From Minisyncoccota bacterium (GTDB taxonomy: Bacteria > Patescibacteriota > Minisyncoccia > JAHIHE01 > JAGLIN01), in the NCBI GenBank assembly GCA_041661265.1, contig JBAZUT010000008.1, forward strand, positions 1,134 through 65,133: a stretch of DNA of 64,000 nucleotides. Direction: 5' to 3'. Numbering within the stretch: the first letter of the stretch is position 1; each line of letters starts with the position of its first letter. A program made the position numbers and the translations under genes. Shown piece by piece: positions 635 through 19,280 of the stretch. The notes below the pieces were generated by a model. The model ran no database searches and had not been told where the DNA came from. It was given only the letters and a program-made list of their open reading frames with translations.

Positions 635-852
635 ACTTTGTTCGGATAATGGAAGAATAGTACCAAAACAGGTATTTCAGCCATCATTCCGAAGAAATGA
701 ATGCATAAGACATGGTTTTTTTCATGTCATGCAAAAAAAGAATGGTCATTGAAAACTTAATAATGAAGGTGAAATGATGAAGATAGCGGATAATAGTTTG
801 AAAAAACACGCGGAATCGATTATGAACAGAAAAAACACTAGAGGTGATTGAT

Positions 853-2348: not shown

Positions 2349-3122
2349 ATGTCAGACAATGATCCGGAAAGGTCAAAAAAAGCCAAAAAAATGGTTCTCT
2401 TCTACCTTTTGTTCGCGGTGCTGGTCTATCTTCTTGGAATAGTTAATGCAATTGTACTGATGGCTATTCTGGTGATCGGCCCGAAGATTGTCCGATACAT
2501 AAACGCAAAAAGAGGAACACCCGCGGGTGAAGGGATAGCGGCTAAGCTGAATTTTGGCAAGATCTTCAAAACTTTGTTATTTGTTGCACTTGTTGCCGTG
2601 ATCCTGTATTTTCTCATTTCATATCTTATGAGTATGGATACGTCGGAAAATAAAGGTCCATTGAATAGCGTGATCTATGTTGAAAGCCAGGAAGGCGCTG
2701 GAATAGTGAATAACAACGGCACCTATGGGATCCAGCTTGCAACCGGAGGCGCGACAACCGGAACGACTTTCATCATCAGAACAAAGGAAACTGTGACAGG
2801 CTGGCCTGCATTCGGGGCCGATGTATATTCTCCAAAAGGAGGTTCGACGTTGAAGGTGTCATATATTGATGCGGACAATTTGAAGAATAGCATTCGTTTT
2901 CAAGAGGTTTCAATTCCGGCCAACTATAGCTTCGGGTATTCGAATAAATACAAGCTAAGCGATTATCGCGGTTGGATCAAGAACGGGACGAGTGAGGAAG
3001 TCGTGAGCAAGGGAAATCTTCCTCGCAAAGATCCGATAAGGCATGACATAGAGCTTGAGGTATATGTGGCTCCAAACAGCTACGTTGAACTCAGCAATAT
3101 GATTTTGCGCAGAAACTGGTAG
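2349..3122 (+). CDS. Hypothetical membrane protein (two N-terminal TM helices, Gly/Thr-rich extracytoplasmic domain)
   Basis: ORF with hydrophobic segments FYLLFAVLVYLLGIVNAIVLMAILVIG and LLFVALVAVILYFLISYL. No recognisable motif. Confidence 0.4.
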   Translation: MSDNDPERSKKAKKMVLFYLLFAVLVYLLGIVNAIVLMAILVIGPKIVRYINAKRGTPAGEGIAAKLNFGKIFKTLLFVALVAVILYFLISYLMSMDTSENKGPLNSVIYVESQEGAGIVNNNGTYGIQLATGGATTGTTFIIRTKETVTGWPAFGADVYSPKGGSTLKVSYIDADNLKNSIRFQEVSIPANYSFGYSNKYKLSDYRGWIKNGTSEEVVSKGNLPRKDPIRHDIELEVYVAPNSYVELSNMILRRNW

Positions 3123-3787: not shown

Positions 3788-6100
3788 ATGAACATAAATT
3801 TAAAAGAAAAAATAAAAAATATGATGCATTCTTTCAACTTTGGAAAAATCAAAGAAAGCGAAGTAACCGGAAAAAAGGGAAAGCATATTTCAGTTTTGAA
3901 GATGCTTTTTGTTTTTGTGTCCATGCTGGCCTTGCCTGTTCATATGGCAAATGCGGTATGGTACAAACCATGGACATGGACACTGAGGGGCGTTGGAGAA
4001 GAAATACTGGAGGCAATTTTATTCGGTTTTAACTTGATCGTCTATAATCTCGGCAACTTTGCCCTGAATATAGCCGGACAGCTGGTCCATTTTGGAGCGT
4101 GGCTCGTCGATCTCATGATGGACCAGGGAATATACAAGGCGGTTTTGGTTGATTCCACAGCCATCAAGATCGGATGGGAAACTATCAGGGATTTTTGCAA
4201 CATGTTTTTCATTTTTTTCCTGCTCATCGTAGCATTCGCAACAGTACTTCGGATCAGCGAATATAGCGCGAAAGTCATACTTCCGAAGTTTCTGATCGCG
4301 ATCTTTATGATCAATTTCAGCATGGAGATCACGAAGCTCGTGATCGATTTCGGACAGGTTTTTATGTATGAGATCAGGGGCTGGATGGGTGATTTTTCCG
4401 GAACGACGGGAGGAGGAAGCAGCCTCACTTCGATCGTGGATTATTTCAATGAATATTTCAATGCAAGTGCAACGAACATTACGGCAGATTCGGCCATAGC
4501 TATTCTTTTTGCGGCCGCCTATTCTTTCATGCTCGGATTCACCTATATCATGATGGCGGGATTCCTTCTTATCCGACTGCTGATGTTCGCTGTTCTGATG
4601 ATCCTCTCTCCTTTTGCCTTTTTCGCGAATATTTTTCCGGGGACAAGGCACTATTCCAGCGATTGGTGGAGATCCATAATGAAATATTCTCTTTTCGGTC
4701 CGATATTCATTTTCTTCGTTTTCATATCCGCGACCATGGCCTTTGAACTTACAAACAATTACAATCCTGCGGCAGTCGTTCCTGCCGGATATGCGCAGAT
4801 CGAAGCCGTGAAAGGACTCATCCCGAAGCTTATTCCGAATGTTATCGCGCTGATGATGCTTTGGATGGCAATTCCGATCACTCAGAAACTGGGAATTGCC
4901 GGTTCGAGCAGACTGATCGGCGGAACGCTCGGTCTTGGCACTGTGGCCATGGCAAGCTATGGCGCGACGAAGCTTGCAGGAGGATGGGGAAAGAAAGCGG
5001 TTGAAGCACCGGCGAGCAGGTTACATGCTTACGGTATGGGCCAGAACGGAAGATACAAAGCAGCGGTGGATAAATTAAGCGGCGGATTGAAAAAACTGCC
5101 CCTTGGCACAGGAAGAATATTCATTCAATACGAAGCTGACAAGGCCGTACAGAAAAAGGAAGATGTTGCAAAGCATCAGAAGATCATGGAAAATCTTTCC
5201 GACAAAGATAAGAAATCATATGTCGATAGCTTCTCGATCGATCGAAAAGCAAAAGCAGATGCTCAGCAGGCTATGTTTAATTTGCTTGCAAAGGATTCCG
5301 GCAAGGGTTTGACGGATGCAAGATTGCAGAAGATGGGTTATGAGAAAGAAGTGAACGGACAGCAGGTGTTTGATAAGAAGAAATTTGAAAGCGATTATAA
5401 TCGGGCAAAGGCTTATGGACATGACACGGGCACTTTGGAGACCTACAGGCCTGATATGTTGACGAAAGATGATGACATAAGGGAAAAAGTCAAAAAAGTT
5501 GTCCAGGATGGAAACTATAAGAACATAAAGAGCGATGCTCTCGCAAATGAGACCGTTGCTAAGGAATTGGAAGGATTGATTGGCAAGAAAAAATATGATG
5601 AATTTATAAACAACAAGTCACAAGAAGAAAAATCAAGCCTTTCAAAGCATAAAGAGAAAAAATTAGCAGTGGAATATGCAACGCTATCTCCTGCTGATTT
5701 ACAAAAAAAACAGGTTGAGATTGCAAGCCTTGCAAGTCCAGATGATAAAGTGGAAGCCATGAAACAGATGACGGGAGTTGTAAATGGTCAAATTCAATAT
5801 GCGCCAAACATCAACAACAGGCCGGTTGTTAATTTGGACGTTGTAAATGAAGTCATGGATAGCATGTCCAAGGATCAATTCCTTGATTTGAATAAAGATT
5901 TCTTTGAGGAATATGGGCACATGGTTTCAGATGCTAATATTGACCATATTGCCAAATTTGGCGATACGGAACAGCTTAAATCAATGAAAGAAGCGATTGT
6001 AAGGGCACAAGCAGGAACTAATAATTTTTATCGCGGAAATCAGCTGGTGGATGCTCAAAAATTAACAGATAGACTGAATAAAATAAATAGTAAAATATAA
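3788..6100 (+). CDS. VirB6/TrbL-like type IV secretion polytopic membrane protein with a long charged C-terminal extension
   Basis: About 8 predicted TM helices in residues 30-400, then a ~370-aa K/D/E-rich hydrophilic tail. Sits in an operon with PrgI-like and VirB4 genes. An extended -10 (tgttataat) lies at ~3674-3682. Confidence 0.45.
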   Translation: MNINLKEKIKNMMHSFNFGKIKESEVTGKKGKHISVLKMLFVFVSMLALPVHMANAVWYKPWTWTLRGVGEEILEAILFGFNLIVYNLGNFALNIAGQLVHFGAWLVDLMMDQGIYKAVLVDSTAIKIGWETIRDFCNMFFIFFLLIVAFATVLRISEYSAKVILPKFLIAIFMINFSMEITKLVIDFGQVFMYEIRGWMGDFSGTTGGGSSLTSIVDYFNEYFNASATNITADSAIAILFAAAYSFMLGFTYIMMAGFLLIRLLMFAVLMILSPFAFFANIFPGTRHYSSDWWRSIMKYSLFGPIFIFFVFISATMAFELTNNYNPAAVVPAGYAQIEAVKGLIPKLIPNVIALMMLWMAIPITQKLGIAGSSRLIGGTLGLGTVAMASYGATKLAGGWGKKAVEAPASRLHAYGMGQNGRYKAAVDKLSGGLKKLPLGTGRIFIQYEADKAVQKKEDVAKHQKIMENLSDKDKKSYVDSFSIDRKAKADAQQAMFNLLAKDSGKGLTDARLQKMGYEKEVNGQQVFDKKKFESDYNRAKAYGHDTGTLETYRPDMLTKDDDIREKVKKVVQDGNYKNIKSDALANETVAKELEGLIGKKKYDEFINNKSQEEKSSLSKHKEKKLAVEYATLSPADLQKKQVEIASLASPDDKVEAMKQMTGVVNGQIQYAPNINNRPVVNLDVVNEVMDSMSKDQFLDLNKDFFEEYGHMVSDANIDHIAKFGDTEQLKSMKEAIVRAQAGTNNFYRGNQLVDAQKLTDRLNKINSKI

Positions 6101-6882
6101 TGAAAAAAGAAATTAAAGATAAAATCAAAAACACCCTTCCGGCTTTCGTGTTGGATAGTCTTTATAGTGATTATAGTTCTGAGGCTATCGAAAAAATAAT
6201 TGATGACTATATCCAGAATGAAGAAACAATGGATAATTTGAAAGATATAATCGGTCTTATAGTTTTGAAAGAAATAAGAATAGAAGAAGTTTTTGATTTC
6301 ATAAAAAAACTTGGGATTGATGATAAAAAGGCGAAAGACGTCACATTGATCGTTCTTTGCGAGATATTATTCCCGATGAAAGATTTTTTCCCTGGCATTG
6401 AAGATGTGATCGTCAAACTTGGCGGGGAGATCCCCAAAACGAATCCGATTAGCATTGATCAGCAGATGCTCAAAAGAGAGAAGGAAATGGAAGAAATGGA
6501 AGAGGCTGAAGAAAGAGAGCAAGAAGAAGCGGAAAAAGACATGATGGTGAGTCTTCCGATAGCTGAACTTGTAAAAGAATATCCTCAGGTTCAATCCCAG
6601 CGGATCGGATCGCAGGAGTCGATCATCGTTCAGGGAAGCGATGTGCCTATGAAACCGGAAATAAAATACTGGATGAAAGATTATATGGAAAAGGCGGGAT
6701 ATCGCATGCACTCGAATCTTGATCGGGTCAGTTATGTCTATCACGACAAGAACACAAAGAATATGAATGAGGAAGAAAGAAGGCAATTGGGTTTGGTTTT
6801 GAAATCCTTTGATGAAGAAATACCCCTCCCCTATTCCACCAAGCATGTCAAGATCGACTTTTCGAAAATTGCTGAAGAGTAA
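6100..6882 (+). CDS. Hypothetical cytoplasmic acidic protein, translationally coupled to the VirB6-like gene (taATGa overlap)
   Basis: ORF without TM segments. Contains an E-rich stretch REKEMEEMEEAEEREQEEAEKD. Confidence 0.4.
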   Translation: MKKEIKDKIKNTLPAFVLDSLYSDYSSEAIEKIIDDYIQNEETMDNLKDIIGLIVLKEIRIEEVFDFIKKLGIDDKKAKDVTLIVLCEILFPMKDFFPGIEDVIVKLGGEIPKTNPISIDQQMLKREKEMEEMEEAEEREQEEAEKDMMVSLPIAELVKEYPQVQSQRIGSQESIIVQGSDVPMKPEIKYWMKDYMEKAGYRMHSNLDRVSYVYHDKNTKNMNEEERRQLGLVLKSFDEEIPLPYSTKHVKIDFSKIAEE

Positions 6883-6958: not shown

Positions 6959-7324
6959 ATGCACGATTTTGATTTAGAAAGAAGAACAACTGAATTCGCG
7001 AAAAGAGTAGTTCGTTTATGCAGATCATTACCGAAAGATTCAATTAACAATAGATTAAGCGGACAGGTTGTCGGTTCGGCTGGTTCCGTCGGCGCAAATT
7101 ATCGTGAAGCAAATGATGCTTTGGGGAAAAAGGACTTTATTCTCAGGCTTAAAATAGCCAGAAAAGAAGCAAAGGAAACGATGCATTGGCTGGAACTGGT
7201 TGAAGAAGCGAATCCTGAGCTGAAACCAAGAATGGCAGAATTAAAACAAGAAGCAACTGAATTGAAGAATATTCTATCAGCAATAATCGGCAAAACGGTA
7301 AAAAATAACAATCCTGTTCGATAA
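6959..7324 (+). CDS. Four-helix-bundle protein (23S rRNA intervening-sequence protein / DGR Avd-like family)
   Basis: Family motif GSAGSVGANYREA. Flanked by short inverted repeats (6890-6935 vs 7340-7375). Confidence 0.6.
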   Translation: MHDFDLERRTTEFAKRVVRLCRSLPKDSINNRLSGQVVGSAGSVGANYREANDALGKKDFILRLKIARKEAKETMHWLELVEEANPELKPRMAELKQEATELKNILSAIIGKTVKNNNPVR

Positions 7325-7430: not shown

Positions 7431-7883
7431 ATGCAGTACGGCGTACCGCAATTTATCGACGTTGAAGACAAGATAGTAGGTCCTTTTACCGGCAAACAAA
7501 CTCTGTATATGATGATCGGAGGAGGATTTTTGATCCTGATCTTCTCGTTCTTCACTCTGGGATTTTTTCTCGTCGCCGTTGTCATCATTCTTCCGCTTAC
7601 GCTGGTTTTCGCTTTCTATAAGCCGAAAGGCATCACCGTTGCCCAATATCTCTCGAATTTCATGAAGTTTTTCTCATCGAATCGTCTTTATGTCTGGAGG
7701 AGGGAGAATGAAGGAAGCTTTTTCAAAACAGTACAGAAGAAGAAAAAGGCTACCGTGGAAGTCGAGGCTAAGACTGTCACAAGAAGCAAGATCCGCGAAC
7801 TTGCCTGGGTTCTCGACACCAGCACTGCGGTGAGCGTTCCCTATGAGGCAAAAGAGAGGCCGGACGAAGCGGTGAGAAGATGA
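7431..7883 (+). CDS. PrgI family (VirB3-like) type IV secretion protein
   Basis: MQYGVPQFIDVEDKIVGPFTGKQTLYMM followed by two TM helices. This is the characteristic PrgI N-terminus and topology. Confidence 0.55.
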   Translation: MQYGVPQFIDVEDKIVGPFTGKQTLYMMIGGGFLILIFSFFTLGFFLVAVVIILPLTLVFAFYKPKGITVAQYLSNFMKFFSSNRLYVWRRENEGSFFKTVQKKKKATVEVEAKTVTRSKIRELAWVLDTSTAVSVPYEAKERPDEAVRR

Positions 7884-7892
7884 TTTTTGGCA

Positions 7893-8344
7893 ACTGAAAA
7901 ATGAAAAGCTAAAAATGAAAAACGACAGAGAAAAATTTAAAAATGAATTTAAGGCGCGAATCTACAACTTCATATTGAATCTGATAAAATTTATCGACCA
8001 CTTACCTTCCGACAGAGCTACGGATATAATCGCCAAACAGCTCCTCAGAAGCGGCACAAGCATCGGCGCAAACTATATCGAAGCGCAAGCGGCAAGCTCA
8101 AAGAAGGACTTTACTAACTTTTTCCACTATTCCTTAAAATCGGCCAATGAAAGCAAGTTCTGGATCGCGATCTTAAGAGATAGCAAAAAGGCTGGAAAAG
8201 AAGAGGCTGAAGCTTTATTGAAAGAGCTTATAGAAATTTCAAACATACTGGGCTCAAGCATTATCACGCTGAAGAACAAAAGATAGTCCATCTTATATAT
8301 AATATTTTTTCGTTTTTCATTTTAAATTTTAAATTTGAAATATG
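7893..8344. repeat. Direct repeat copy 1 (~450 bp) carrying a four-helix-bundle gene, bounded by 17-bp terminal inverted repeats TAAAAATGAAAAACGA
   Basis: Near-identical to 9019..9480. TIRs at 7909-7925 and 8310-8326. The copy ends in the ATG (atgtcaa) of the downstream gene. Confidence 0.8.
7915..8286 (+). CDS. Four-helix-bundle protein (23S rRNA IVS protein / Avd-like family), copy A
   Basis: LLRSGTSIGANYIEAQAASSKKDF...SKFWIAILRD. 99% identical to 9047..9418. Confidence 0.7.
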   Translation: MKNDREKFKNEFKARIYNFILNLIKFIDHLPSDRATDIIAKQLLRSGTSIGANYIEAQAASSKKDFTNFFHYSLKSANESKFWIAILRDSKKAGKEEAEALLKELIEISNILGSSIITLKNKR

Positions 8345-9016
8345 TCAACTCCTGAAAAAAAACCGGTTAAGGGTCTCAGCACCCAAAGATATCTTGAAAT
8401 AGCCGAGATAAAGGATAGCGTTGTCGTGATGAAAAACGGAAACTTGAGGGCTGTTCTCATGGTGTCCTCGATAAATTTCGCCTTGAAATCCATCGATGAG
8501 CAGGATGCGATCATCTATCATTTCCAAAGTTTTCTGAATTCTTTGGATTTTTCCATCCAGATCCTCATCAACTCAAGGAAGCTCAATATTGAGAATTATC
8601 TGGACGTTCTGAGAGAAACGGAGAAAAGGCAGACGAATGAGCTCCTGCGAATGCAGACCGCAAGCTATATCGAATACATCCAGGGGCTGGTCAAAATGGC
8701 GAACATTGTCAGCAAGACTTTTTATATCGTTGTTCCCTTCTCCGCCGCTGAAACGAAAGAAGGCGGGCTTTCAAAACTGAAAGCGTCTTCAACCGCGACA
8801 CAGATCATTTCCAGCAGGGAAGTTTTTGAAAAATATAGAGATCAGCTTTTTCAGAGGGTCGATCATATAATCGAGAATCTGAGCGGAACTGGGCTTCGAA
8901 TGACAATGCTTAACACGCAGGAACTTATTGAATTGTATTATAATCTCTATAACCCCGATCTCGCGGACAAGAAAGGGCTGGCCGACATCGAAGAACTTGA
9001 CCTTGCGGTGGAGTAA
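8342..9016 (+). CDS. VirB4 N-terminal-domain-like protein (CagE/TrbE/VirB4 N-domain-like), encoded separately from the ATPase
   Basis: Segment EIKDSVVVMKNGNLRAVLMVSSINFALKSIDEQDAIIYHFQSFLNSL resembles VirB4/TrbE N-domains. No Walker motifs. Assignment is tentative. Confidence 0.35.
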   Translation: MSTPEKKPVKGLSTQRYLEIAEIKDSVVVMKNGNLRAVLMVSSINFALKSIDEQDAIIYHFQSFLNSLDFSIQILINSRKLNIENYLDVLRETEKRQTNELLRMQTASYIEYIQGLVKMANIVSKTFYIVVPFSAAETKEGGLSKLKASSTATQIISSREVFEKYRDQLFQRVDHIIENLSGTGLRMTMLNTQELIELYYNLYNPDLADKKGLADIEELDLAVE

Positions 9017-9018
9017 AC

Positions 9019-9480
9019 TTACGTATTGAAAAATGAAAAGCTAAAAATGAAAAACGACAGAGAAAAATTTAAAAATGAATTTAAGGCGCGAATCTACAAC
9101 TTCATATTGAATCTGATAAAATTCATAGATAACCTGCCCTCCGACAGAGCTACGGATATAATCGCCAAACAGCTCCTCAGAAGCGGCACAAGCATCGGCG
9201 CAAACTATATCGAAGCACAAGCGGCAAGCTCAAAGAAGGACTTTACTAACTTTTTCCACTATTCCTTAAAATCGGCCAATGAAAGCAAGTTCTGGATCGC
9301 GATCTTAAGAGATAGCAAAAAGGCTGGAAAAGAAGAGGCTGAAGCTTTATTGAAAGAGCTTATAGAAATTTCAAACATACTGGGCTCAAGCATTATCACG
9401 CTGAAGAACAAAAGATAGTCCATCTTATATATAATATTTTTTCGTTTTTCATTTTAAATTTTAAATTTGAAATATGTCAA
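9019..9480. repeat. Direct repeat copy 2 (~450 bp) carrying a four-helix-bundle gene, TIR-bounded
   Basis: Near-identical to 7893..8344. TIRs at 9041-9057 and 9442-9458. Confidence 0.8.
9047..9418 (+). CDS. Four-helix-bundle protein (23S rRNA IVS protein / Avd-like family), copy B
   Basis: ORF 9026 uses a TTG start; the ATG at 9047 gives the same 123-aa protein as copy A (one H to N difference). Confidence 0.7.
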   Translation: MKNDREKFKNEFKARIYNFILNLIKFIDNLPSDRATDIIAKQLLRSGTSIGANYIEAQAASSKKDFTNFFHYSLKSANESKFWIAILRDSKKAGKEEAEALLKELIEISNILGSSIITLKNKR

Positions 9481-11333
9481 TTTTCAGCAGTTTGCTGCCA
9501 TCCGGAAATAAGGCAAAAGAAAATAATTCCGCTTCGCCGAAGAAAGGAACCGCAACAGGCGAATCGAGCGCTGTGATCGCTTCGGAGAGGATATACAAGC
9601 AGGGACTTACGACCGTAAAGGACATCATCGCTCCCGCCGCTTTCAGGATCGAAGCGGATTATGTGATGATAAACCGGAAAATGGCGGCGACGTTCTTCGT
9701 TTATGCCTATCCGAGATATTTGCAGACGAATTGGTTCTCCCCGATCGTCAATCTTGACGCGACATTCGACATTGCGATGTTCATCCATCCGCAGAGCAGC
9801 GCGGAGATATTGAGGCATCTTCTCAAGGTTGTAACGCAGATCCAGTCGCAGATCTCCATGAACGAGGAAAGAGGAATGGTCAGGGATCCGATCCTCGAGA
9901 CCGCATATCAGGACGTTGAGAATCTCCGAGATGACCTCCAGCAGGGTATCGAGCATTTTTTCCAGTTCGGGCTCTATATGACAATCTATGGCGATACGAA
10001 AGACGAACTGATGAAGGTTGAGACGCAGATAGAGGCGATCCTTGAGGCAAAGCTCATCTATGTGAAGCCGGCGATAATGCAAATGGAGGAGGCTTTCAAT
10101 TCGACGCTTCCGCTGGCGAGCGACAAGCTCATGATCGTGAACAATATGAACACTTCTCCCCTTTCCACGACTTTCCCGTTCGTTTCGAGCGATCTCACTT
10201 CGAATCAGGGCATTCTCTATGGGATAAACAGGCACAACAACAGTCTGGTGCTTTTTGACAGGTTTTCGATGGAAAATGCGAACATGGTCATTTTCGCAAA
10301 GTCCGGCGCAGGAAAAAGCTATACGGTCAAATTGGAAATACTGCGAAGTTTGATGGTTGAAACGGATGTCATTGTCATAGACCCTGAAGATGAATATAAG
10401 CATCTTTGCGAGACCGTCGGCGGCACTTTCATGAGGATCTCTCTTTCGGCGAAGCATCACATTAATCCTTTTGATCTTCCGACTGCGCTTGAGGATGAAG
10501 CTCCCGCGGACGTGCTTCGTACGGCGATCGCCAATGTCTCCGGACTTCTCAAGGTTATGCTCGGAAAGCTTTCCGCAGAGGAAGACTCGATCTTGGACAA
10601 GGCCATTGCGGAAACCTATGCCATAAAAGACATCACTCCGGAAGCGGAATTCGCGAAGCTTGAACCTCCGACAATGACAGATCTGCAGATGGTGCTTGAG
10701 AATATGAGCGGCGCAGAAAGCCTCTCGACCAGGATCAAGAAATACACTGAAGGAACTTTTGCAGGATTTTTGAACCACAGGACGAATGTCAGCGTGGACA
10801 AAGGCCTCGTCGTTTTCAACATCAGGGACATGGAAGAAGAGCTCCGTCCGGTCGCCATGTATCTCATTCTGCACTATATCTGGACGCTGATCAGGTCCGA
10901 AAGGAAAAGAAGGATGCTTGTGGTCGATGAGGCGTGGTGGATGATGCAGCACGAAGACGCGGCCTCATTTCTCTTTTCGATCGCAAAACGATGCAGGAAA
11001 TATTTCTTGGGCCTCACGACGATCACCCAGGACGTCACCGACTTCATGGGTTCGAGATATGGAAAGCCGATCGTCACCAATTCCTCGATCCAGCTTCTCC
11101 TGAAGCAGTCCCCTGCCGCCATCAAGGTCATCGTGGACACATTCTATCTTACGGATGAGGAGAAGTTCTTGCTATTGGAAAGCAATGTCGGAGAAGGGAT
11201 ATTCTTTGCAGGGGCAAAGCGCGCCGCGATCAAAGTGGTCGCTTCATATTCCGAGGATCAGATCATAACTTCCGATCCCGCCCAGCTCCTTGAGATCGAA
11301 AAGGCAAAGAAAGAACTGGAAGATGTGGCGTAA
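9474..11333 (+). CDS. virB4: VirB4/TraE/PrgJ-type type IV secretion ATPase
   Basis: Gram-positive-type N-terminus KDIIAPAAFRIEADYV...YPRYLQTNWFSPIVNLD. Walker A is FAKSGAGKSY, Walker B is MLVVDEAWWMM. Confidence 0.85.
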   Translation: MSIFSSLLPSGNKAKENNSASPKKGTATGESSAVIASERIYKQGLTTVKDIIAPAAFRIEADYVMINRKMAATFFVYAYPRYLQTNWFSPIVNLDATFDIAMFIHPQSSAEILRHLLKVVTQIQSQISMNEERGMVRDPILETAYQDVENLRDDLQQGIEHFFQFGLYMTIYGDTKDELMKVETQIEAILEAKLIYVKPAIMQMEEAFNSTLPLASDKLMIVNNMNTSPLSTTFPFVSSDLTSNQGILYGINRHNNSLVLFDRFSMENANMVIFAKSGAGKSYTVKLEILRSLMVETDVIVIDPEDEYKHLCETVGGTFMRISLSAKHHINPFDLPTALEDEAPADVLRTAIANVSGLLKVMLGKLSAEEDSILDKAIAETYAIKDITPEAEFAKLEPPTMTDLQMVLENMSGAESLSTRIKKYTEGTFAGFLNHRTNVSVDKGLVVFNIRDMEEELRPVAMYLILHYIWTLIRSERKRRMLVVDEAWWMMQHEDAASFLFSIAKRCRKYFLGLTTITQDVTDFMGSRYGKPIVTNSSIQLLLKQSPAAIKVIVDTFYLTDEEKFLLLESNVGEGIFFAGAKRAAIKVVASYSEDQIITSDPAQLLEIEKAKKELEDVA

Positions 11334-12059: not shown

Positions 12060-13031
12060 ATGGAAAGTGGAAGAATAAAAAGTGGTGTATCCAGAATTGC
12101 CAAAAATGAAAGTGCTAATCGAGTAGCGAATGCAACTCCTTTTGTTGGTGGAGCTAAAAGAATGGCAGAGAGTGCAGCGGGAAAAACATTGGCCGGAGAG
12201 AAATTATCAGGCAGGGATAGGTGGAAACATGGCGCTGGAGGAGCAGCTGATCTGGCTTTGGATTTTACCGGAATTGGAGAGGTTGAGAAAGGCGCAAAAA
12301 TGGCATATATTGGAAAAAAGATAGCAAGCGGTCTGGAAGAAAATACAAAAAAGGAAGCCACAAGAGAAATTAAAGACCAAGTCATTAAAAGAGGCATTGC
12401 GGCTGATAATTATCGTATCAAAAGCCAAGCCGGCAGAAATGAGGAAGCGCAAAGGATAAAAAGCGAAGCTCAAAGAGAAGCCGAGAGGCATATGAATCAT
12501 GAATTCCAAAAATCGGCAAGAATGAGCGGAGTGAAAGGGAGAGTGGCGTCAAAAATCGCCAGCCGGGGCGTATCGGAAGCAGCCTATCAAATTGCCTCCA
12601 GGTTGAGCGAAAAGGCGAAACAAGGGGGGCATTGGGCGGTGATCGTTTTTATTGTAACTTTACTGATAGCTATAATAGTTGACGCGTTAGATATTGTAGG
12701 CACTCTTCTTATTGAAACGATCCTAGGCTGGCTTATTATTTTTCTGATTAACACACTTCTTTCATTGATCATAAATATTTTTTGGATGTTGCTTGCAGGT
12801 GGCGGACATAGCAAGTTTTTTTGGAAGATTCTTGTCAGGTATATCATATTTGGATTGATACTTGATTCCATCCCAATTATAGAATTATTTCCATTTACGG
12901 TTTTTATGGTATGCTGGAACTGGTATGATTATAGCAAAGAAAGAAGTGAAGCGAAGCAAGAATTGAAAAGATTTTCAAAAGTTTATGCAAAAACGGGAGA
13001 AATAAAAGGACAATCCATGAAATATGCTTAG
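12060..13031 (+). CDS. Hypothetical membrane protein (charged N-terminal half, 4 TM helices in C-terminal half) bracketed by the two GIY-YIG elements
   Basis: ORF with GHWAVIVFIVTLLIAIIVDALDIVGTLLIETILGWLIIFLINTLLSLIINIFWMLLAGG. No recognisable family. Confidence 0.4.
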   Translation: MESGRIKSGVSRIAKNESANRVANATPFVGGAKRMAESAAGKTLAGEKLSGRDRWKHGAGGAADLALDFTGIGEVEKGAKMAYIGKKIASGLEENTKKEATREIKDQVIKRGIAADNYRIKSQAGRNEEAQRIKSEAQREAERHMNHEFQKSARMSGVKGRVASKIASRGVSEAAYQIASRLSEKAKQGGHWAVIVFIVTLLIAIIVDALDIVGTLLIETILGWLIIFLINTLLSLIINIFWMLLAGGGHSKFFWKILVRYIIFGLILDSIPIIELFPFTVFMVCWNWYDYSKERSEAKQELKRFSKVYAKTGEIKGQSMKYA

Positions 13032-13379: not shown

Positions 13380-13442
13380 TCAGAGTGACAAGTATTGCAT
13401 AGAAGGGATATTTGCTTTTACAATACCTCAAGACAATATAGT

Positions 13443-13721
13443 ATGAATAAATACTATGTTTATATAGCTTCGAACAGCAGAAATACAGTTTTATATACCG
13501 GCATTACACATAACATAAATCGAAGAATGTTCGAACATAAAAACAAATTAGTTAAAGGTTTTACAGAAAAATATAATGTTGATAAATTAGTGTATTGTGA
13601 AGAATTTAATTCTCCGGGAGAAGCAATTGCCGCCGAAAAGAAAATTAAAGGATGGACAAGAAAGAAAAAGATAGATTTGATCGAAGGGATTAATCCCGAA
13701 TTTGCAGACTTGTTGATATAA
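13443..13721 (+). CDS. GIY-YIG nuclease family protein, second copy (~92% aa identity to 11504..11782)
   Basis: MNKYYVYIASNSRNTVLYTGITHNINRRMFEHKN... ORF 13395 has an upstream extension; the likely start is the ATG at 13443. Confidence 0.8.
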   Translation: MNKYYVYIASNSRNTVLYTGITHNINRRMFEHKNKLVKGFTEKYNVDKLVYCEEFNSPGEAIAAEKKIKGWTRKKKIDLIEGINPEFADLLI

Positions 13722-13852
13722 AACCGGGATTCTTCATTTCGCTTTGCTTCATTCAGAATGACATTATTGTTTAAGCAAATGAAAATTAGGGTTTCATTCA
13801 AAATCCAAAATTGGAAATTAAAAATTAACTTATAATATTAACATCTAAAACT

Positions 13853-14851
13853 ATGTTTATCAGAAAACGCACCTTGCTCCTGCTTCTCCTTGTTGCATCT
13901 GCCACATTTGCTTACCCTGCTTTTGCCCAATATACCCCAATGGTCAGGATTCCCGGGCTCACCGCCGCGGGAAGCATAAATCTTTCAATGTATCTGGTGG
14001 GATTATATAATTTTATGGTCAGTATTGTGGGAATAGTTGCTGTCATGATGATGATCGTGGGAGGCATGAGATATATAACTGCTGCGGGAAGTTCAACGGC
14101 GATTAGCGATGCAAAAGATATTATCTCAAATGCCGTAGCCGGTCTCGTTATTGCCATTTTTGCCTGGATCATTGTTGCCGCAATAAATCCCGACGTCTTG
14201 TTCATAAAGAAACCCGGATCGGGATTCAAAAATGCTTCATATTTATCTTGTACGAAGCAATATACGGCCGCGATATGCAAGTGCAATGATGACGTGGGTT
14301 TGGGAGTTTTTGCATCTCCGACCGCCTGCAATGATGCATGCAAAGCCGGAAATCATTGCGGCGGTTTGGTGAATAGTTGTATCAGGGATGGAGTGAATGA
14401 AACGACCAGTCCGAAATTTAATACAGCTCCGAATAACGGAAAATGTTTATGTGCTAATGGAGTGGATGTTGTGCCTATACCGCCAGCTACATGTCAAGCG
14501 ACTTGCGCTATAGCAAATTGTATAAAGGCTGATGCAAGAATTGGAAATACAGGAATTACAGGTTTTGTCTCAGGAGTGGTAGATCAAAAAAGGACAACTA
14601 TATACATAAAAAATCCTTGCACGGATTCTTTGGCATTTGATGCTTACAAAACATTTGCTGTAAATCCCTATACGTGCAGTTGGGATTTTGAAAGCGACGG
14701 CACACCTGACAATCCCTCGTGTTTTACAGGATTTTGTCCGGTAAGTGGCGTCTTTATCGCTGGAACTTATACAGCAACGCTTACAGTGACTGACTCTGTT
14801 ACTGGAGCAAGTTCTGCGGACACTGTTATTTATGAAGCAATATATCCATAA
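13853..14851 (+). CDS. VirB2/TrbC-like pilin core with a ~210-aa Cys-rich C-terminal extension (PKD-like tail)
   Basis: Signal peptide, then a pilin-like core (INLSMYLVGLYNFMVSIVGIVAVMMMIVGGMRYITAAGSS...AGLVIAIFAWIIVAAI). Downstream are at least 14 Cys residues and a TGFCPVSGVFIAGTYTATLTVTDSVTG segment. Confidence 0.5.
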   Translation: MFIRKRTLLLLLLVASATFAYPAFAQYTPMVRIPGLTAAGSINLSMYLVGLYNFMVSIVGIVAVMMMIVGGMRYITAAGSSTAISDAKDIISNAVAGLVIAIFAWIIVAAINPDVLFIKKPGSGFKNASYLSCTKQYTAAICKCNDDVGLGVFASPTACNDACKAGNHCGGLVNSCIRDGVNETTSPKFNTAPNNGKCLCANGVDVVPIPPATCQATCAIANCIKADARIGNTGITGFVSGVVDQKRTTIYIKNPCTDSLAFDAYKTFAVNPYTCSWDFESDGTPDNPSCFTGFCPVSGVFIAGTYTATLTVTDSVTGASSADTVIYEAIYP

Positions 14852-14985
14852 GAATGGGCTTAACGACGAATTCTTGTGGCTATGGCGTAAAGGATTTGCT
14901 GATTATGATTCTGGCAGTGCGCGAAATATAATTTTAGCACCACATATTTACTAATAACCCTATCTTCACAAAAAAAATTGGGAAT

Positions 14986-15501
14986 TTATTCCCAATTTAT
15001 TATTACGTGGTCGAATTTCAGCTCATTGCCGTCAGTGTTGTCAGTTTTTTCGTAGATTGCTACGATAGACGTTGTTTCGCCGGATGCGAATGCATATTCA
15101 ACTGGAGAGAACCCAGTTGTCTTTGTTGGGTTCTGGATATCATCCTTTGACTCAACTCCGTCAAAATTCCATCCAAGGAATTTGTATCCTGCAATGTCTG
15201 TTGCCGATACTTTGACAAGAGGCCTGCGATGTGCATCTATTGATACGGTCTTATCTTTCGTATCGATACCGTTTATAAATGCTTTTATTGCGTCCAAGCT
15301 GTTCAGGTCCTGTTTCTCATACGAGAAACCGACAAATGCGCCTTCGGCTGCTGTTTTGCTGTTTAATACAGTGGGCATGGATGTGGGATTTGTAAACGTC
15401 CCCAGCGCCGTTAGTACGGCCGCTGCTATGAGCGCTACGGCCACGGTGCCAATCATCCATGTCGGAATCACTATTCCTCTCTTACGTATTGTTTCGTTCA
15501 T
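14986..15501 (-). CDS. Hypothetical signal-anchored secreted protein
   Basis: N-terminal TM helix VIPTWMIGTVAVALIAAAVLTAL. RBS AAGGAGCGTGAAAAAAAATG resembles those of the neighbouring lipoprotein genes. Confidence 0.4.
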   Translation of the reverse strand: MNETIRKRGIVIPTWMIGTVAVALIAAAVLTALGTFTNPTSMPTVLNSKTAAEGAFVGFSYEKQDLNSLDAIKAFINGIDTKDKTVSIDAHRRPLVKVSATDIAGYKFLGWNFDGVESKDDIQNPTKTTGFSPVEYAFASGETTSIVAIYEKTDNTDGNELKFDHVIINWE

Positions 15502-15771
15502 TTTTTTTCACGCTCCTTGTGTTTTCTTTCTTTATCACCTCCTGTTTCCAGCAAGGTTTTTTAGCGGGTATGTAACAGTCTAAAGTCCTTAAAGTCTAAA
15601 GTTTCTAAAGCAAAGCTTTCGGCTTTATGGATATTTTGACTTTCGACTATTTTTATACCCTTCAAAAAACCATGCTGGATTTACTTGTTGTCGGATTTGT
15701 TCTGTGAACTGTAAATGAGCTAACTGGATATAATAGCATAAATATGACATTTGTCAATCCCCTTTATCCAC

Positions 15772-15890
15772 AGCGCAAGAGGTCTGCACCTCGTCTATGA
15801 GGTCAGTCCTCTGAAGCGCCCAGCATCGGATCTTTTTGATCCTTTGCAATCGGAGGACCGATTTCCTGCTTGGAGGTGCGGATTGCTTTG
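15772..15890. repeat. Degenerate copy of the ~270-nt structured dispersed repeat (compensatory stem changes versus the full copies)
   Basis: GAGGTCTGCACCTC here vs CAAGGTCTGCACCTTG, and GAGGTCAGTCCTC vs CAAGATCAGATCCTTG. Both stems are preserved. Confidence 0.5.
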
Positions 15891-16059
15891 TAATATTCCC
15901 AGATCGCACTTCTTTTGTATATAAAATTGTTAACGAACGACATTTTTCAGCAAAAGCTGAAACTCTCTTCTCTACCATCAAAATAGCAAGAAATCCACGT
16001 TGAGTCAATTTTTGCAGAGTTCGTATTGTGGACTTCCTGTGGAGAAGATGGGGAATAAA

Positions 16060-16095
16060 GATAAAAAAAGAGTATATGTTATACTCTTCAATTGC
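16060..16095 (-). terminator. Rho-independent terminator (GAAGAGTATA-aca-TATACTCTT plus T7) downstream of 16100..16594
   Basis: Read on the minus strand. Confidence 0.45.
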
Positions 16096-16099
16096 AATG

Positions 16100-16594
16100 C
16101 TATTTATATATCGTTGTTGAACTAAAAACAAATTCTGCCCTGTTTCCCGCGCTATCGATCGCACTTATTTTTGATATGCAGGATTCCCCGTTTGAAACCT
16201 TTTTGCAAACTTCATAAAGCGGATCTGTTTTTATCATCGTAAAGAGGGCCCAATCACCGTTTTTGAAAGGTGTTTCCGTCACTCCATCTCCATTATTGTC
16301 GTACAGATAAGTTGCAGGCGGATTTGGCACGATAGAGTCACTGAAGTCCAAGACGAAGGATTTATCTTCTTCCAGAACGATAGCATTTCCGAAATAATCT
16401 CTAGTCGCTAAGGTTCTCGGATTGCTCGTATTTATATTTACCTCTCCTATTTTTGGCTGGATGACAAATGTTTTAGCCGTCATGTCGGATGTTTTATTTG
16501 CCTCTTCTGCCGGGATGGCGCTTGATGCGTATCCTGAAAATGATGCAAATATAGCAATTAGAACTGCCATAATTACAATTGCTTTAAATCTCAT
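16100..16594 (-). CDS. Hypothetical secreted protein (signal peptide)
   Basis: MRFKAIVIMAVLIAIFASFSGYASSA. Shares a conserved promoter/leader (TTGACA-N17-TATGCT ... aaaaaggacgtgaaagaATG) with the lipoprotein paralogs. Confidence 0.45.
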   Translation of the reverse strand: MRFKAIVIMAVLIAIFASFSGYASSAIPAEEANKTSDMTAKTFVIQPKIGEVNINTSNPRTLATRDYFGNAIVLEEDKSFVLDFSDSIVPNPPATYLYDNNGDGVTETPFKNGDWALFTMIKTDPLYEVCKKVSNGESCISKISAIDSAGNRAEFVFSSTTIYK

Positions 16595-16758
16595 TCTTTC
16601 ACGTCCTTTTTGTTTTATATTTTAAGGATTGATTATTCTTTCCTTAATGTCATCAGCATAAATTGTTTTTCTAAATTTGTCAAAGGTTGATGATACGGGA
16701 TTTGTTAATAATGTTTAAAAATGTCCTAAAGTTAAAAAAATAGGGATTTATTATCCCT

Positions 16759-17397
16759 TTATTGATAGAACCTTATATTGATATTTACTCTATAGAGTTC
16801 ATCATTAGCGCTTTTGTCTGCCATCCAGACGGTGGATTTTCTCTGTGGGCCCTTCACTCCTTCTACAGAACCGCCTCTATTCCATTTGCCGCCATTTCCA
16901 GACTCAACTGTGAGTTTGACCACACCTTGCAGATCACGGAGATATGAATTAACTGTCAGTATCTTATTGTCTCCGGAAATTTCCGCTTTGAAATTATCCA
17001 GGACTAGATTGTCATCAACTGCAATTGCGATGTTTTGCAGTTTATTTTTTGGGACAGTAAAATAAACCTCCACTACACCATTGCTTCTGAAACTGGCATA
17101 TTTTTGAACATACGCTACATTATTTTCGTAGCTTCTATTGTTGTATGCACCGACCAGGGGCTCTTTTACGGGGAGGCCTTTGACAGTAATTCCGTTGAGA
17201 GTATTTCCTTCAATTTTTTTCGAATCATCTAAACTGTTGGAATCTGTGATTCCAGTATTTTCGGAAATTGGCTGTTTGATGGCCGTTTCTGCTACTTTCG
17301 GCGCTATTGTCTCCGGACCTTTGTCCGACACGCATCCCGAGATCAACAAAGCTCCCGCAAGCAGAAATACTGCCAATATTTTCAATTTTATTCTCAT
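16759..17397 (-). CDS. Lipoprotein, paralog 1 (variable surface lipoprotein)
   Basis: MRIKLKILAVFLLAGALLISGC has a lipobox. ORF 16759..17442 starts at an upstream TTG/ATG; the likely start is at 17397. Confidence 0.5.
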   Translation of the reverse strand: MRIKLKILAVFLLAGALLISGCVSDKGPETIAPKVAETAIKQPISENTGITDSNSLDDSKKIEGNTLNGITVKGLPVKEPLVGAYNNRSYENNVAYVQKYASFRSNGVVEVYFTVPKNKLQNIAIAVDDNLVLDNFKAEISGDNKILTVNSYLRDLQGVVKLTVESGNGGKWNRGGSVEGVKGPQRKSTVWMADKSANDELYRVNINIRFYQ

Positions 17398-17523
17398 TCT
17401 TTCACGTCCTTTTTGTTTTGTTTTCCATATTTCAAGGATCAATTTGTCTTATCCTCAATGCCACCAGCATAAAGTTTTTTTTGAGATTTGTCAAGAATTG
17501 AGGCATCTATTGTCCCATTACTA

Positions 17524-17797
17524 AAAAGTCCCCTCTCGAGAGGGGCAGGGGTGTGTGAGTTGGGAAGCGCGGCTAGGTCGCTTTGAGTTAATTTGATAAA
17601 CAAAAAAACACAAATCTCTCTGAGGTTCAAGGTCTGCACCTTGTCCACAAGGTCAGATCCTTGAAGAACCGGCGAAGACATCGAACAACTTCATTTATTA
17701 TCGGAGGATCCGACTTCTTTGAGGGGGTGCGGACCTCTTTTGTTCTCGGACTTCCCTGTTCCTTCCACACAAGAGGAAGAGGCCAGGTGGATTTGGA
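17524..17797. repeat. Structured dispersed repeat, copy 1 (~270 nt; begins with the perfect palindrome CCCCTCTCGAGAGGGG)
   Basis: Near-identical core to 20218-20490 and 21054-21262. Confidence 0.75.
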
Positions 17798-17818: not shown

Positions 17819-18661
17819 TCAGACCAGATATTTTTTCATTATTTCTTTGTAATTTTTGCAGAAATCAGTCACGAAAGATTGGTCGGGAAAGAAATTCTGA
17901 AGATCATATGCGAGCTTTCTTTCATCGACCTCCTTTTCGATTTTGTTTTTCAGGACTTGTTTCAGTTCATTCTCGTCTTTGATGGAGAAAGCCTTTTCAA
18001 GGACAGCAAAGTCAGGACTGATGCCTTTGCTGAGATACCAGAATAGGTCATAGAAGTCGCGTCCCTTTATGTCGATAACATTGTTTTTTCCCTTGAACCA
18101 TTTTCGTCCCAGTATCGCCATGATCTTTCCGGTCATCAGAAATTTTAGGGTGTAATTTTTGGCAAGAAAATTGAAGCCGAATGAAGAGACTGGGGAAAGC
18201 TCGGTTTCAAATACTTCGAATTGGCTGATCTCCGGCTCGATTTTGACATAGAGAAAATCGCTTTTTTCTCCATAAATAAGACCAAGATCTTTCAGGATCG
18301 GGAATTTGAGATAGAGCCTGTTTTTTCCCTGGACCCGGAAGGAAGGAACTATAAGGAAATTGTTTTCAAAATATGCAGAAAGTGCCGTGCCCATTTTTTC
18401 CAGATCCAATGTCCGGAAATCAGATTCTTCGAGGTCAAAGTCCAGGTCTTCGGAAAGTCGCGACAAGCCATAGCAAATGCGAAGGCACGATCCGCCGGTG
18501 AAGATGAAGTTTTTATATTCTTTGCTGTTATATATATAGCTCAGAACTGGAAATTGCAGGACCTCTTTAAGGAAGTTTGCGATCACAAAATCAGGAAGCC
18601 CGGCTCTCTTTTTCTCCTGCACCAGGGTTTTCATGGTCTCTTTAAGCATAATATTGTTCAT
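17819..18661 (-). CDS. abiEii: AbiEii/AbiGii family nucleotidyltransferase toxin (type IV toxin-antitoxin / abortive infection)
   Basis: FIFTGGSCLRICYGLSRLSEDLDFDL matches the DUF1814 GGtaL...R.SeDlDf motif. Confidence 0.7.
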   Translation of the reverse strand: MNNIMLKETMKTLVQEKKRAGLPDFVIANFLKEVLQFPVLSYIYNSKEYKNFIFTGGSCLRICYGLSRLSEDLDFDLEESDFRTLDLEKMGTALSAYFENNFLIVPSFRVQGKNRLYLKFPILKDLGLIYGEKSDFLYVKIEPEISQFEVFETELSPVSSFGFNFLAKNYTLKFLMTGKIMAILGRKWFKGKNNVIDIKGRDFYDLFWYLSKGISPDFAVLEKAFSIKDENELKQVLKNKIEKEVDERKLAYDLQNFFPDQSFVTDFCKNYKEIMKKYLV

Positions 18662-19280
18662 TAATGAGTTTAAATAGTGTATTCATGCGTTTGTTGTTGC
18701 ATATTTTTATGTATTCTTCCATTTTTTTGATGTCGGAAGCGGAAATATTTTCCCAGTTGAGGCGCAGATCTTCCAGCGCTTCTCGGTTTATTTCACGCTT
18801 GCTCAAAAAGCGAAGATAGAGAAAATCAAACAGAGCTTTTGCTTTTTCGGCTTCAAGAACGGGCGCGCCTTGAAAATATTTGACGGAATATCCGCAAAAA
18901 AGCTTCGGGCTTATTGAGTAATAGCGGAAGCTTCCGAGCTTGTTCACAATTTCCCTTCCTGTTTTTACGGTCATTGAAGTCAGGGCGTTGGCCGGTTCGC
19001 TCAGGATCTGATATTTGGAAAGCGTATATTCCATTGAGAGATAGGATGGCATCACCATTTGATTGGCGATGTATTCGAGATAGGAGTTCTTGTCTCCTTC
19101 CATGCGGAATCGGTCGCTTAGCACGTATAGGCCGTTTTTCAGGCCAATGAGTTTCCCGTTTTTAAGCCAATATTTGATGTTGGCATTCAGCGATTCAGGG
19201 TCGCTTTCAAGCGATCGAAGCGTATTTTTGCTGAAAACAAGGAACTTTTGGCTTATTTTCTCAAAATCATTATAGTTCAT
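18642..19280 (-). CDS. abiEi: Putative AbiEi-like antitoxin / transcriptional regulator
   Basis: Lies immediately upstream of and overlaps the AbiEii gene by 20 nt. Size is about 210 aa. Assigned mainly by operon context. Confidence 0.45.
   Translation of the reverse strand: MNYNDFEKISQKFLVFSKNTLRSLESDPESLNANIKYWLKNGKLIGLKNGLYVLSDRFRMEGDKNSYLEYIANQMVMPSYLSMEYTLSKYQILSEPANALTSMTVKTGREIVNKLGSFRYYSISPKLFCGYSVKYFQGAPVLEAEKAKALFDFLYLRFLSKREINREALEDLRLNWENISASDIKKMEEYIKICNNKRMNTLFKLINEQYYA

Follow-up and report, generated by a model that had tools for sequence, protein, structure and literature searches.

The analyzed window (the whole 64-kb stretch of DNA from a Minisyncoccota bacterium; all positions refer to it unless another locus is named) carries on its plus strand an operon of a type IV secretion system (T4SS). 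The last gene of this operon encodes a protein publicly annotated as a plain "pilin" and referred to below as the fused pilin, in which a VirB2-like pilin hairpin is followed by a 12-cysteine module and a variable C-terminal tail. Sequence comparison places it in a conserved family of decorated VirB2-like pilins that ends the T4SS operon of Paceibacteria; its members share a duplicated 12-Cys stalk peculiar to the family, and their head can be swapped. The open reading frame (ORF) and its segments are as follows; pLDDT stands for the predicted local distance difference test of the AlphaFold2 model.

13853–14851 (+), fused pilin ORF, ATG to stop, 332 aa
13853..13927 (+), signal peptide, residues 1–25: MFIRKR, a Leu-rich core, and AFA/QY, seen in hydropathy, sequence pattern, and an AlphaFold2 helix at residues 2–19
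13928..13981 (+), N-terminal segment of the mature protein, residues 26–43, with the motif Y-T-P-L-V-R-I-P-G-L-P..G; predicted extracellular
13982..14206 (+), VirB2-like pilin hairpin: helix 1, residues 44–76; short loop with G79 and K88; helix 2, residues 81–118
14195..14242 (+), flexible linker, residues 115–130, KKPGSGFKNASYL; AlphaFold2 pLDDT below 50; variable after a conserved K-x-P-G
14243..14377 (+), repeat 1 of the Cys module, residues 131–175, with C133, C142, C144, C159, C163, and C169; pLDDT 85–94
14378..14530 (+), repeat 2 of the Cys module, residues 176–226, with the invariant C176, and C198, C200, C214, C218, and C223
14531..14851 (+), variable tail, residues 227–332: immunoglobulin (Ig)/PKD-like beta-sandwich with four Cys, then the stop codon

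Anatomy of the fused pilin

The hydropathy profile has a signal-peptide-like segment at residues 1–25 and hydrophobic helices at approximately 45–72 and 90–118. Cleavage of the signal peptide at AFA/QY is predicted from the A-x-A pattern; a class III signal peptide of type IV pilus (T4P) pilins (G/FxxxE) is not present in the sequence as read, which has this type I signal peptide and two helices instead. The Pfam family T4SS_pilin (PF18895) matches residues 51–110 (34.2 bits, E = 2.8e-8), the match covering profile positions 12–70 of 71 and exceeding the gathering cut-off of 26.6 bits; TrbC/VirB2 (PF04956, gathering cut-off 27.9 bits) yields no match at E ≤ 1 in the Pfam scan. AlphaFold2, run with the family alignment, gives helices at residues 44–76 and 81–110 joined by a 4-residue turn (pLDDT 82–87). 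Judged by profile and model together, the N-terminal part of the fused pilin is a true VirB2-like/T4SS_pilin hairpin. In length, the protein does not conform to PF18895, the members of which have approximately 100–160 aa and little beyond the hairpin, since it has 332 aa, with 210 residues past the hairpin.

The first-pass annotation of this stretch had compared the core with four small pilins encoded at the other end of the window:

58498–58878 (−), small T4SS_pilin gene
58919–59293 (−), small T4SS_pilin gene
59326–59658 (−), small T4SS_pilin gene
59717–60112 (−), small T4SS_pilin gene

Each of the four exceeds the PF18895 cut-off; with TrbC (PF04956) they score only 16.9–25.1 bits, under the cut-off. 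The likeness holds up: pairwise identity of the fused core with the small pilins is 17–28%, and hhalign of the fused-family profile (74 members) against the profile of the four small pilins gives a probability of 98.5% and E = 1.8e-15 over 79 columns (residues 26–108). A signal peptide followed by an unrelated transmembrane segment, the outcome named in the first-pass annotation as speaking against a pilin core, disagrees with the modeled hairpin. All five proteins have the motif I..GG..Y....G.......K........G, with G71, G79, K88, and G97 of the fused pilin also kept in the small ones. A hidden Markov model built from these five sequences finds no further pilin-like ORF within the window.

Two core motifs are missing from the small pilins, namely, Y-T-P-L-V-R-I-P-G-L-P before helix 1, and I-N-P-D-V-L-Y-I-K-K-P-G after helix 2. 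Both are strongly conserved in the fused family: P29, V31, P34, G35, P37, and G40 are kept in at least 90% of the 74 homologues, and helix 2 closes with an invariant I-N-P-D-x-L.

The fused pilin has 16 cysteines, all at residues 133–295, the first 132 residues having none, so that the Cys-rich extension of about 210 residues described earlier is indeed there; it was treated as one unit, however, and consists of two modules, the conserved 12-Cys stalk and the exchangeable tail. The cysteines of repeat 1 are kept in 67–71 of the 74 homologues; across the whole 12-Cys module, 11 are conserved in at least 90% of homologues, and the twelfth, C223, in 46 of 74. Comparison of repeat 1 with repeat 2 by hhalign gives a probability of 94% and E = 1.3e-7, with the duplicated unit C..CxCxDG..(about 13)..CxxxC..(4–5)..C; by this comparison, residues 131–226 are an internal duplication. 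Together, the cysteine pattern and the model point to a stalk, probably with six disulfides.

The module, modeled with a pLDDT of 85–94 in the full-length and C-terminal-only models, has no Pfam match and, in Foldseek PDB, no match below E = 0.28. Its profile search against PDB sequences gives nothing significant, the best matches being glucosidase II beta (E = 0.045) and theromacin (E = 4). A phmmer search over 1.84 billion cluster representatives yields only members of the fused-pilin family as genuine matches. The remaining ones, which might have indicated a wider family of the module, were read and scanned with Pfam and are judged spurious: repetitive junk ORFs (P0077, P0079, P0082) and SWM_repeat/Big_5 giants (P0078, P0081).

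The PKD-like beta segment of the first-pass annotation finds support at the level of the fold and not in Pfam. The top Foldseek matches of the full-length model in PDB are PKD domains, i.e., the AAVR PKD domain 6ihb_R (E = 4e-4, target TM-score 0.61) and the archaeal S-layer PKD domain 1l0q, and matches of the tail in BFVD include phage PKD/Ig-like proteins. Pfam PKD (PF00801) and PKD_4 (PF18911) score 15.3 and 15.1 bits on residues 261–322 (E about 0.02), below their cut-offs of 23.5 and 27. Structure prediction of the C-terminal domain had been proposed as a check; the model of the C-terminal part alone has nothing below E = 0.28 in Foldseek PDB. The pLDDT of the tail is moderate, 54–87 in the full-length model, and 44–80 in the C-terminal-only one. 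With moderate confidence, the tail appears PKD-like in the modeled fold while lying outside the PKD family by Pfam cut-offs. In the full-length model it resembles, by Foldseek, the PKD/Ig-like domains of surface, S-layer, and phage decoration or fibre proteins, but differs from them in four extra cysteines, which probably form two further disulfides in the modeled head. Sequence relatives of the family's tails are found only in the fused-pilin family and in neighboring small genes.

Operon linkage, conservation gradient, and tail replacement

The fused pilin gene lies 2.5 kb 3' of the VirB4 gene on the same strand, at the end of the plus-strand operon. The genes upstream are:

844–2310 (+), SPFH protein
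2349–3122 (+), 257-aa protein
3788..6100 (+), VirB6-like polytopic membrane protein; weak Pfam TrbL/VirB6 match, E = 8e-4, under the cut-off; position kept in 12 related loci
6100–6882 (+), 260-aa protein (p260)
7431..7883 (+), PrgI (VirB3-like); Pfam PF12666, 39.2 bits, cut-off 27
8342..9016 (+), TrsD/TraC-like protein, 224 aa; NCBIfam TrsD E = 6.6e-8 and VirB4_plasma E = 1e-11, both under the cut-off
9474..11333 (+), VirB4-type ATPase; Pfam P-loop_TraG 93.2 bits, DUF87, AAA_10; 77–88% identical to orthologues in related loci
12060..13031 (+), membrane protein, 323 aa (p323), its N-terminal half charged and soluble, its C-terminal half strongly hydrophobic; sub-threshold PT-TG (Pre-toxin-TG) match

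The TrsD/TraC-like protein resembles the N-terminal part of VirB4, including VirB4 of the Mycoplasma integrative and conjugative element (ICE), and its orthologues in loci L001, L003, L004, and L007 carry PF26593 TraC-like. In these four loci the gene order, VirB6-like, p260, PrgI, TrsD, VirB4, (p323), fused pilin, is the same, their fused pilins being homologues of only 40–53% identity, and the position of p323 is taken by a gene of 199–343 aa with no assigned family. Orthologues of p323 (28–38% identity) stand at the same position in seven of the scanned loci (L013, L015, L018, L020, L025, L027, L031), and its product could be a pilin-specific partner. Of the 20 loci of GTDB species representatives that extend 2 kb or more upstream, 16 have the operon order ending in the fused pilin.

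The fused pilin is the sole pilin ORF within 10 kb of the operon in those related loci, while loci of Saccharimonadia and other classes have arrays of four to eight small pilins instead. The earlier assignment of the fused pilin to the same filament as the four small pilins of the window is not supported. Nothing links them: the genes are 44 kb apart, and instead of grouping with the array, which adjoins a large glycosylation cluster, the fused pilin gene has a conserved place at the end of the T4SS operon. The scanned ORFs of the window include no relaxase or coupling protein, Rfam and tRNA scans give nothing near the fused pilin gene, and a promoter and terminator scan around it stays at background level, except for a hairpin at 14975–14998, between convergent genes.

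The family alignment comprises 74 homologues of 340–563 aa (E = 1e-35 to 1e-128), hence at least 74 proteins share the three-part build, which is far beyond chance because of this recurrence. Four segments are distinguished in the alignment: the near-invariant core (residues 27–122), the linker, the Cys module, and the tail, which cannot be aligned family-wide. Mean pairwise identity falls from 74% in the core (minimum 56%) to 31% in the Cys module, and the tails, which are of several unrelated types, form six BLAST clusters of 26, 25, 15, 2, 1, and 1 members. A search with the core only retrieves, as short relatives, truncated or frameshifted fragments of the fused-pilin family and no unfused versions. 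The taxonomy of the contigs, which come from metagenome-assembled genomes, is as deposited (one "Omnitrophota", one "Methanosarcinaceae", several "Saccharibacteria"), and binning errors are possible.

The tail is replaced between close relatives. DNA of the closest relative, P0002 (contig L008), is 85% identical from 13847 to 14505, i.e., to the end of the Cys module; there the homology breaks, to resume at 16100–16329. The intervening segment of about 1.6 kb (14505–16100) comprises the PKD-like tail, the convergent gene 14986–15501, and 0.6 kb of non-coding DNA; in L008 it is replaced by 0.55 kb (843–1389) encoding a different tail. The two breakpoints are the end of the Cys module and the stop codon of gene 16100–16594. 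Because the homology stops at 14505 and L008 carries a different tail, the head is, by this comparison, exchanged at a module boundary. The pilin tail and gene 14986–15501 may have arrived jointly.

The convergent genes downstream of the fused pilin gene are:

14986..15501 (−), 171 aa, N-terminal membrane anchor and beta-rich domain; inside the 1.6-kb segment that differs from L008
16100..16594 (−), 164 aa, free-standing secreted protein with the tail-type domain of close relatives' pilins

The product of 16100–16594 is 40–42% identical to the tails of P0004 and P0002 in the database search (E = 8e-28 to 3e-29), with E = 1e-29 against the P0002 tail in a single pairwise comparison; it resembles these tails and not that of the window's own pilin, and its orthologues in L006 and L008 are likewise encoded downstream of the pilin. 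In three of the 22 loci, the tail and the downstream gene are paralogous: L005 (1454–1933), L006 (2884–3384), and L008 (1389–1736) each have a small secreted or membrane-anchored protein, encoded convergently and 37–46% identical to the adjacent pilin's tail. This paralogy appears specific to one clade. As far as sequence similarity can tell, the pilin and the small genes beside it draw on a common set of circulating domain types, and the downstream proteins could be a short-range copy of the adhesin or a recombination reservoir. A paralogous relation of 14986–15501 to the window's own pilin tail was considered and is not established: pairwise BLAST gives E = 4e-5 to 1e-4, and the profile of three type-B tails E = 0.38.

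Candidate adhesin role and alternatives

A considerable part of bacterial diversity belongs to the Patescibacteria, which live attached to other microbes and whose ways of choosing and holding a host are, to our knowledge, little understood. Their T4SSs resemble monoderm conjugation systems, usually without relaxases, and VirB2-like pilins, unusual for monoderms, are found near virB4 in 1135 assemblies, with arrays of 2–11 divergent copies (about 25% identity on average) in 383 (PMC12102498). In the one species tested, the cultured Saccharibacterium Southlakia epibionticum, epibiotic growth requires both the T4SS genes and the pilin array (PMC10633639; reviewed in PMC12857230). Neither a T4SS adhesin such as PrgB nor a recognizable VirB5 has been found in Patescibacteria (PMC12102498). 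A pilin fused to a Cys-rich ectodomain is not mentioned in these papers on Patescibacterial T4SSs, nor was it retrieved by full-text searches with Pfam names and accessions.

The described Patescibacterial pilins (PF18895, e.g., the arrays of Southlakia epibionticum and Nanosynbacter lyticus) have the same signal peptide, two hydrophobic helices, GG..Y..(A/S)G loop, and conserved Lys as the fused pilin, and come from the same phylum, with virB4 of the monoderm (MPF-FATA-like) type and no relaxase. They differ in being proteins of about 100–160 aa in arrays of 2–11 with about 25% identity (PMC10633639, PMC12102498), whereas the fused pilin has 332 aa, is single-copy and operon-terminal, and combines a core of 74% identity with a 12-Cys stalk and a variable head. 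The Mycoplasma ICE pilin-like protein (NCBIfam NF045849, Mbov_0395 family) is likewise a small two-helix protein, encoded beside a monoderm-conjugation VirB4, and, unlike the fused pilin, has no ectodomain; the fused pilin matches this family with E = 0.004 and the small pilin 58919–59293 (−) with E = 1e-8 (34.7 bits), both under the 40-bit cut-off. VirB5/TraC, the minor pilin at the tip of Gram-negative T4SS pili, has the role proposed here, that of an adhesive pilus component aiding contact with the target, but is a soluble helical protein with no sequence or fold relationship to a VirB2-type hairpin with an ectodomain; the family is absent from both the Pfam (E ≤ 1) and NCBIfam scans of the fused pilin. 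The invertons of PilV (thin pilus of IncI1 plasmid R64) and of phage tail fibres have, like the fused pilin, a constant N-terminal part and an exchangeable C-terminal part that would set partner specificity, and the alternative C-terminal domains of R64 PilV are encoded downstream on the opposite strand, as near the fused pilin. PilV, however, is a type IV pilin of another superfamily, and its inversion occurs at 19-bp repeats with a dedicated recombinase.

In VirB2-family pilins, the two ends lie outside and the loop inside; after assembly into a pilus, the lumen is lined by the loop, with both ends directed outward. Given this topology and the hydropathy profile, the fused pilin would be inserted by its Sec signal peptide, which is then removed, leaving the hairpin in the membrane with the basic loop inside and both ends outside. 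The C-terminal 210 residues would fold outside into a flexible linker, a rigid stalk of two 6-Cys units, and an Ig/PKD-like head, as suggested by the AlphaFold2 model and the cysteine pattern; there, the cysteines, which are even in number (12 + 4), could pair as disulfides and stiffen the stalk. The conserved hairpin would be handled by the VirB4/VirB3/VirB6 machine encoded upstream, and either be retained there or drawn into a pilus-like polymer. In a VirB2-type polymer, the C-terminus would face outward, placing the stalk and head on the outside, where the exchanged head might bind a structure of the host cell and provide the secretion system with attachment and host specificity. A tip or nucleating position would avoid crowding and explain the precise fit of the core to the machine; it would take the role of VirB5, which seems vacant, as Patescibacteria have no recognizable VirB5.

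We somewhat favor the reading of the fused pilin as a surface-displayed, adhesin-type pilin of the Patescibacterial T4SS and a candidate determinant of host specificity, because a conserved anchor with an exchangeable distal domain is the pattern of phage fibres and PilV. The homology of the core, the three-module anatomy, and the operon linkage are held with much higher confidence. The first-pass annotation had also proposed an adhesin type, and this part of its proposal agrees with the pilin hairpin, the predicted outside location of the extension, the Ig/PKD-like end, and the conserved anchor with a replaced tail. Several points weigh against such a role. Published F- and T-pilus geometry suggests that a VirB2-type filament would become crowded if each of its subunits bore an ectodomain of 22 kDa. 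A pilus has not been demonstrated for any Patescibacterial T4SS, and the T4SSs of other monoderms usually have none (PMC12857230). The disulfides of the Cys module are assumed, in a habitat that may be anoxic; confidence in the head model is only moderate, its PKD match being lost in the C-terminal-only model. An Ig-like fold, as modeled, says little about the ligand, and a host structure is a candidate binding partner. Finally, three of the 20 loci (L019; L024, a truncated remnant; and L030, where VirB4 was not found in the 8 kb upstream of the pilin) have no VirB4 nearby, and in L026 the operon is on the opposite strand, upstream of a truncated pilin.

The main alternatives concern the place of the protein in the machine, and a homopolymeric decorated filament or a membrane-retained protein agrees with the data as well as a tip position does. 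The fused pilin might never leave the membrane, its hairpin being a two-helix anchor or a fixed part of the channel, and its ectodomain a short-range adhesin or receptor at the contact with the host. As a rule, the T4SSs of monoderms function with surface adhesins in place of pili (PMC12102498, PMC12857230); the hairpin and its flanking YTPLVRIPGLP and INPDVLYIKKPG are extremely conserved, which would fit fixed VirB6/VirB3 contacts, and the downstream genes of L005, L006, and L008 put the same tail domain on a simple membrane anchor, hence the head can work near the surface. We consider this unlikely, as the core is homologous to a filament-forming family, and a plain anchor would not need the pilin-like G71, G79, K88, and G97 common to the small pilins. 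Conversely, the operon might have a filament of its own that is built mainly of the fused pilin, a bottlebrush-like decorated pilus in which each subunit bears a stalk and head, with the four small pilins forming other filaments or variants. It is the sole pilin gene in or near the T4SS operon throughout the clade; its core is 74% conserved, compared to 27–43% among the array pilins of the window and about 25% on average in PMC12102498; and the disordered linker (residues 115–130) could let the ectodomains splay outward. Such a filament seems still less probable, since known VirB2-type pili (F/T-pilus geometry) offer each subunit less surface than a 22-kDa domain takes up in cross-section, and the four ordinary small pilins are a more natural filament material.

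Two other explanations concern the extension itself. If DNA inversion exchanged the tail with the convergent genes downstream, in the manner of the R64 shufflon (PilV) or the Mu G segment, the fused pilin would be a switchable adhesin, consistent with a constant 5' and a variable 3' part followed by opposite-strand genes with the same kind of domain, with the replacement of the tail exactly at the end of the Cys module, with the 37–46% identity of the downstream gene to the adjacent tail in L005, L006, and L008, and with the relatives' tail type in 16100–16594. However, there are no near-identical inverted repeats in window positions 13800–17600 or in six related loci: the best pairs have 15–48 nt and 73–93% identity, at the level of chance or old paralogy. 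Each downstream gene starts on its own and encodes its own signal or anchor sequence, the scanned neighbors include no recombinase (the nearest one of the tyrosine type, 31925–32860, lies beside housekeeping genes), and the paralogy is limited to three of the 22 loci. Active shufflon-like inversion is thus largely refuted by the short or imperfect inverted matches and the lack of a neighboring recombinase, the switch is very improbable, and the tail exchange appears to be evolutionary and not demonstrably programmed. Even less credible is the reading of the Cys-rich part as a toxin, or an effector resembling antimicrobial peptides, that a pilin-like carrier would release. The cysteine density is like that of defensin-type peptides, and the weak PDB-profile matches, glucosidase II beta and theromacin, are Cys-rich proteins; but none of them is significant, Pfam and NCBIfam scans give no protease site or toxin domain, and the module, situated between the anchor and the variable Ig-like domain, occupies the position of a stalk, not of a warhead, and is conserved while the tail varies.

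Coming back to the adhesin-type pilin, the fused pilin is a concrete candidate for the T4SS adhesin of Paceibacteria. If true, it would be the first described VirB2-family pilin, within the literature searched, that naturally carries a large displayed domain, and would bear on the assembly of VirB2-type pili and on the engineering of display on conjugative pili. More tentatively, and with considerable doubt, one can picture a natural VirB2-type pilin with a modular receptor-binding head that is at once the missing adhesin and the determinant of host range, on a stalk whose fold has no relative among solved structures: recombination at the end of the stalk would swap the head between lineages, in some cases along with a downstream membrane-anchored copy, retargeting the episymbiont to new hosts.

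Other decorated pilins and neighboring genes

Differently decorated T4SS pilins are seen in other Patescibacteria. The ORFs in these loci were read from stop to stop, and their starts are uncertain:

L035, 9779–12139
L051, 10251–11153
L039, 9284–10207
L046, 8985–9884
L019, 5789–7363
L034
L044

Among them are a Falkowbacteria ORF of 787 codons with 70 Cys past the core, a Doudnabacteria pilin with a 14-Cys N-terminal extension, and double-core pilins heading arrays in Saccharimonadia; the L019 family member has an additional N-terminal beta-rich region. From these sequences, decoration of VirB2-like pilins looks like a general theme of the phylum. One clear member of the fused-pilin family (L030, JAUWBW010000041.1, 8288–9235) is on a contig deposited as "Methanosarcinaceae archaeon", probably a binning error; some Patescibacteria parasitize methanogens (PMC10936435).

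In the small-pilin array of the window, the pilin 59717–60112 (−) has a four-Cys insert (AACPDGTCDWKAGEDIFNCKADCGAG) between the signal peptide and helix 1; the insert, spaced C.DG..C / CxxxC, is reminiscent of the repeat unit in the large Cys module, yet lies on the N-terminal side. Among NCBIfam families, the one closest to the small pilin 58919–59293 (−) is the Mbov_0395 pilin-like conjugal transfer protein; judged by this match, pilin-like proteins may not be unique to Patescibacteria among monoderm T4SSs. The array is abutted by a glycosylation/polysaccharide cluster of roughly 25 kb (~33100–58400, plus strand), which comprises five paralogous GT-C (PMT_2/Glyco_transf_22-like) membrane glycosyltransferases, GT2 and GT4 enzymes, several methyltransferases, a DegT aminotransferase, a flippase, UDP-glucose dehydrogenase, and sugar-nucleotide enzymes. 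The ectodomain of the fused pilin is Thr/Ser-rich.

Downstream of the fused pilin gene, repeated sequences lie over the start regions of the minus-strand genes 14986–15501, 16100–16594, and 16759–17442 (direct repeats of 64–90% and 78%):

15492–15530, 16583–16621, and 17386–17424, start-region repeats
16641–16690 and 17452–17501, start-region repeats
15547–15679, hairpin

A 25-nt inverted repeat upstream of 14986–15501 is also kept in L006 (3423–3493). The start-region repeats may serve the three genes as a common regulatory element, or may have been left behind by duplication of a cassette.

The gaps of the T4SS operon hold three paralogues of PF05635 ("S23 ribosomal/23S rRNA-intervening-sequence" four-helix bundle) and one GIY-YIG nuclease gene:

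6959–7324 (+), operon-gap gene
7915–8286 (+), operon-gap gene
9026–9418 (+), operon-gap gene
13395–13721 (+), operon-gap gene

Among relatives, L003 and L007 have one PF05635 gene between PrgI and TrsD, L007 also has a Y1 transposase following VirB4, and in L006 the pilin is preceded by a GIY-YIG gene. It seems that the gaps of this operon are repeatedly colonized by small genes of a selfish or defence-like kind. Further downstream, 17819–18661 (−) is a gene for an AbiEii-type nucleotidyltransferase toxin (Pfam E = 2e-19), overlapping the upstream 212-aa gene 18642–19280 (−), which is probably its antitoxin partner.

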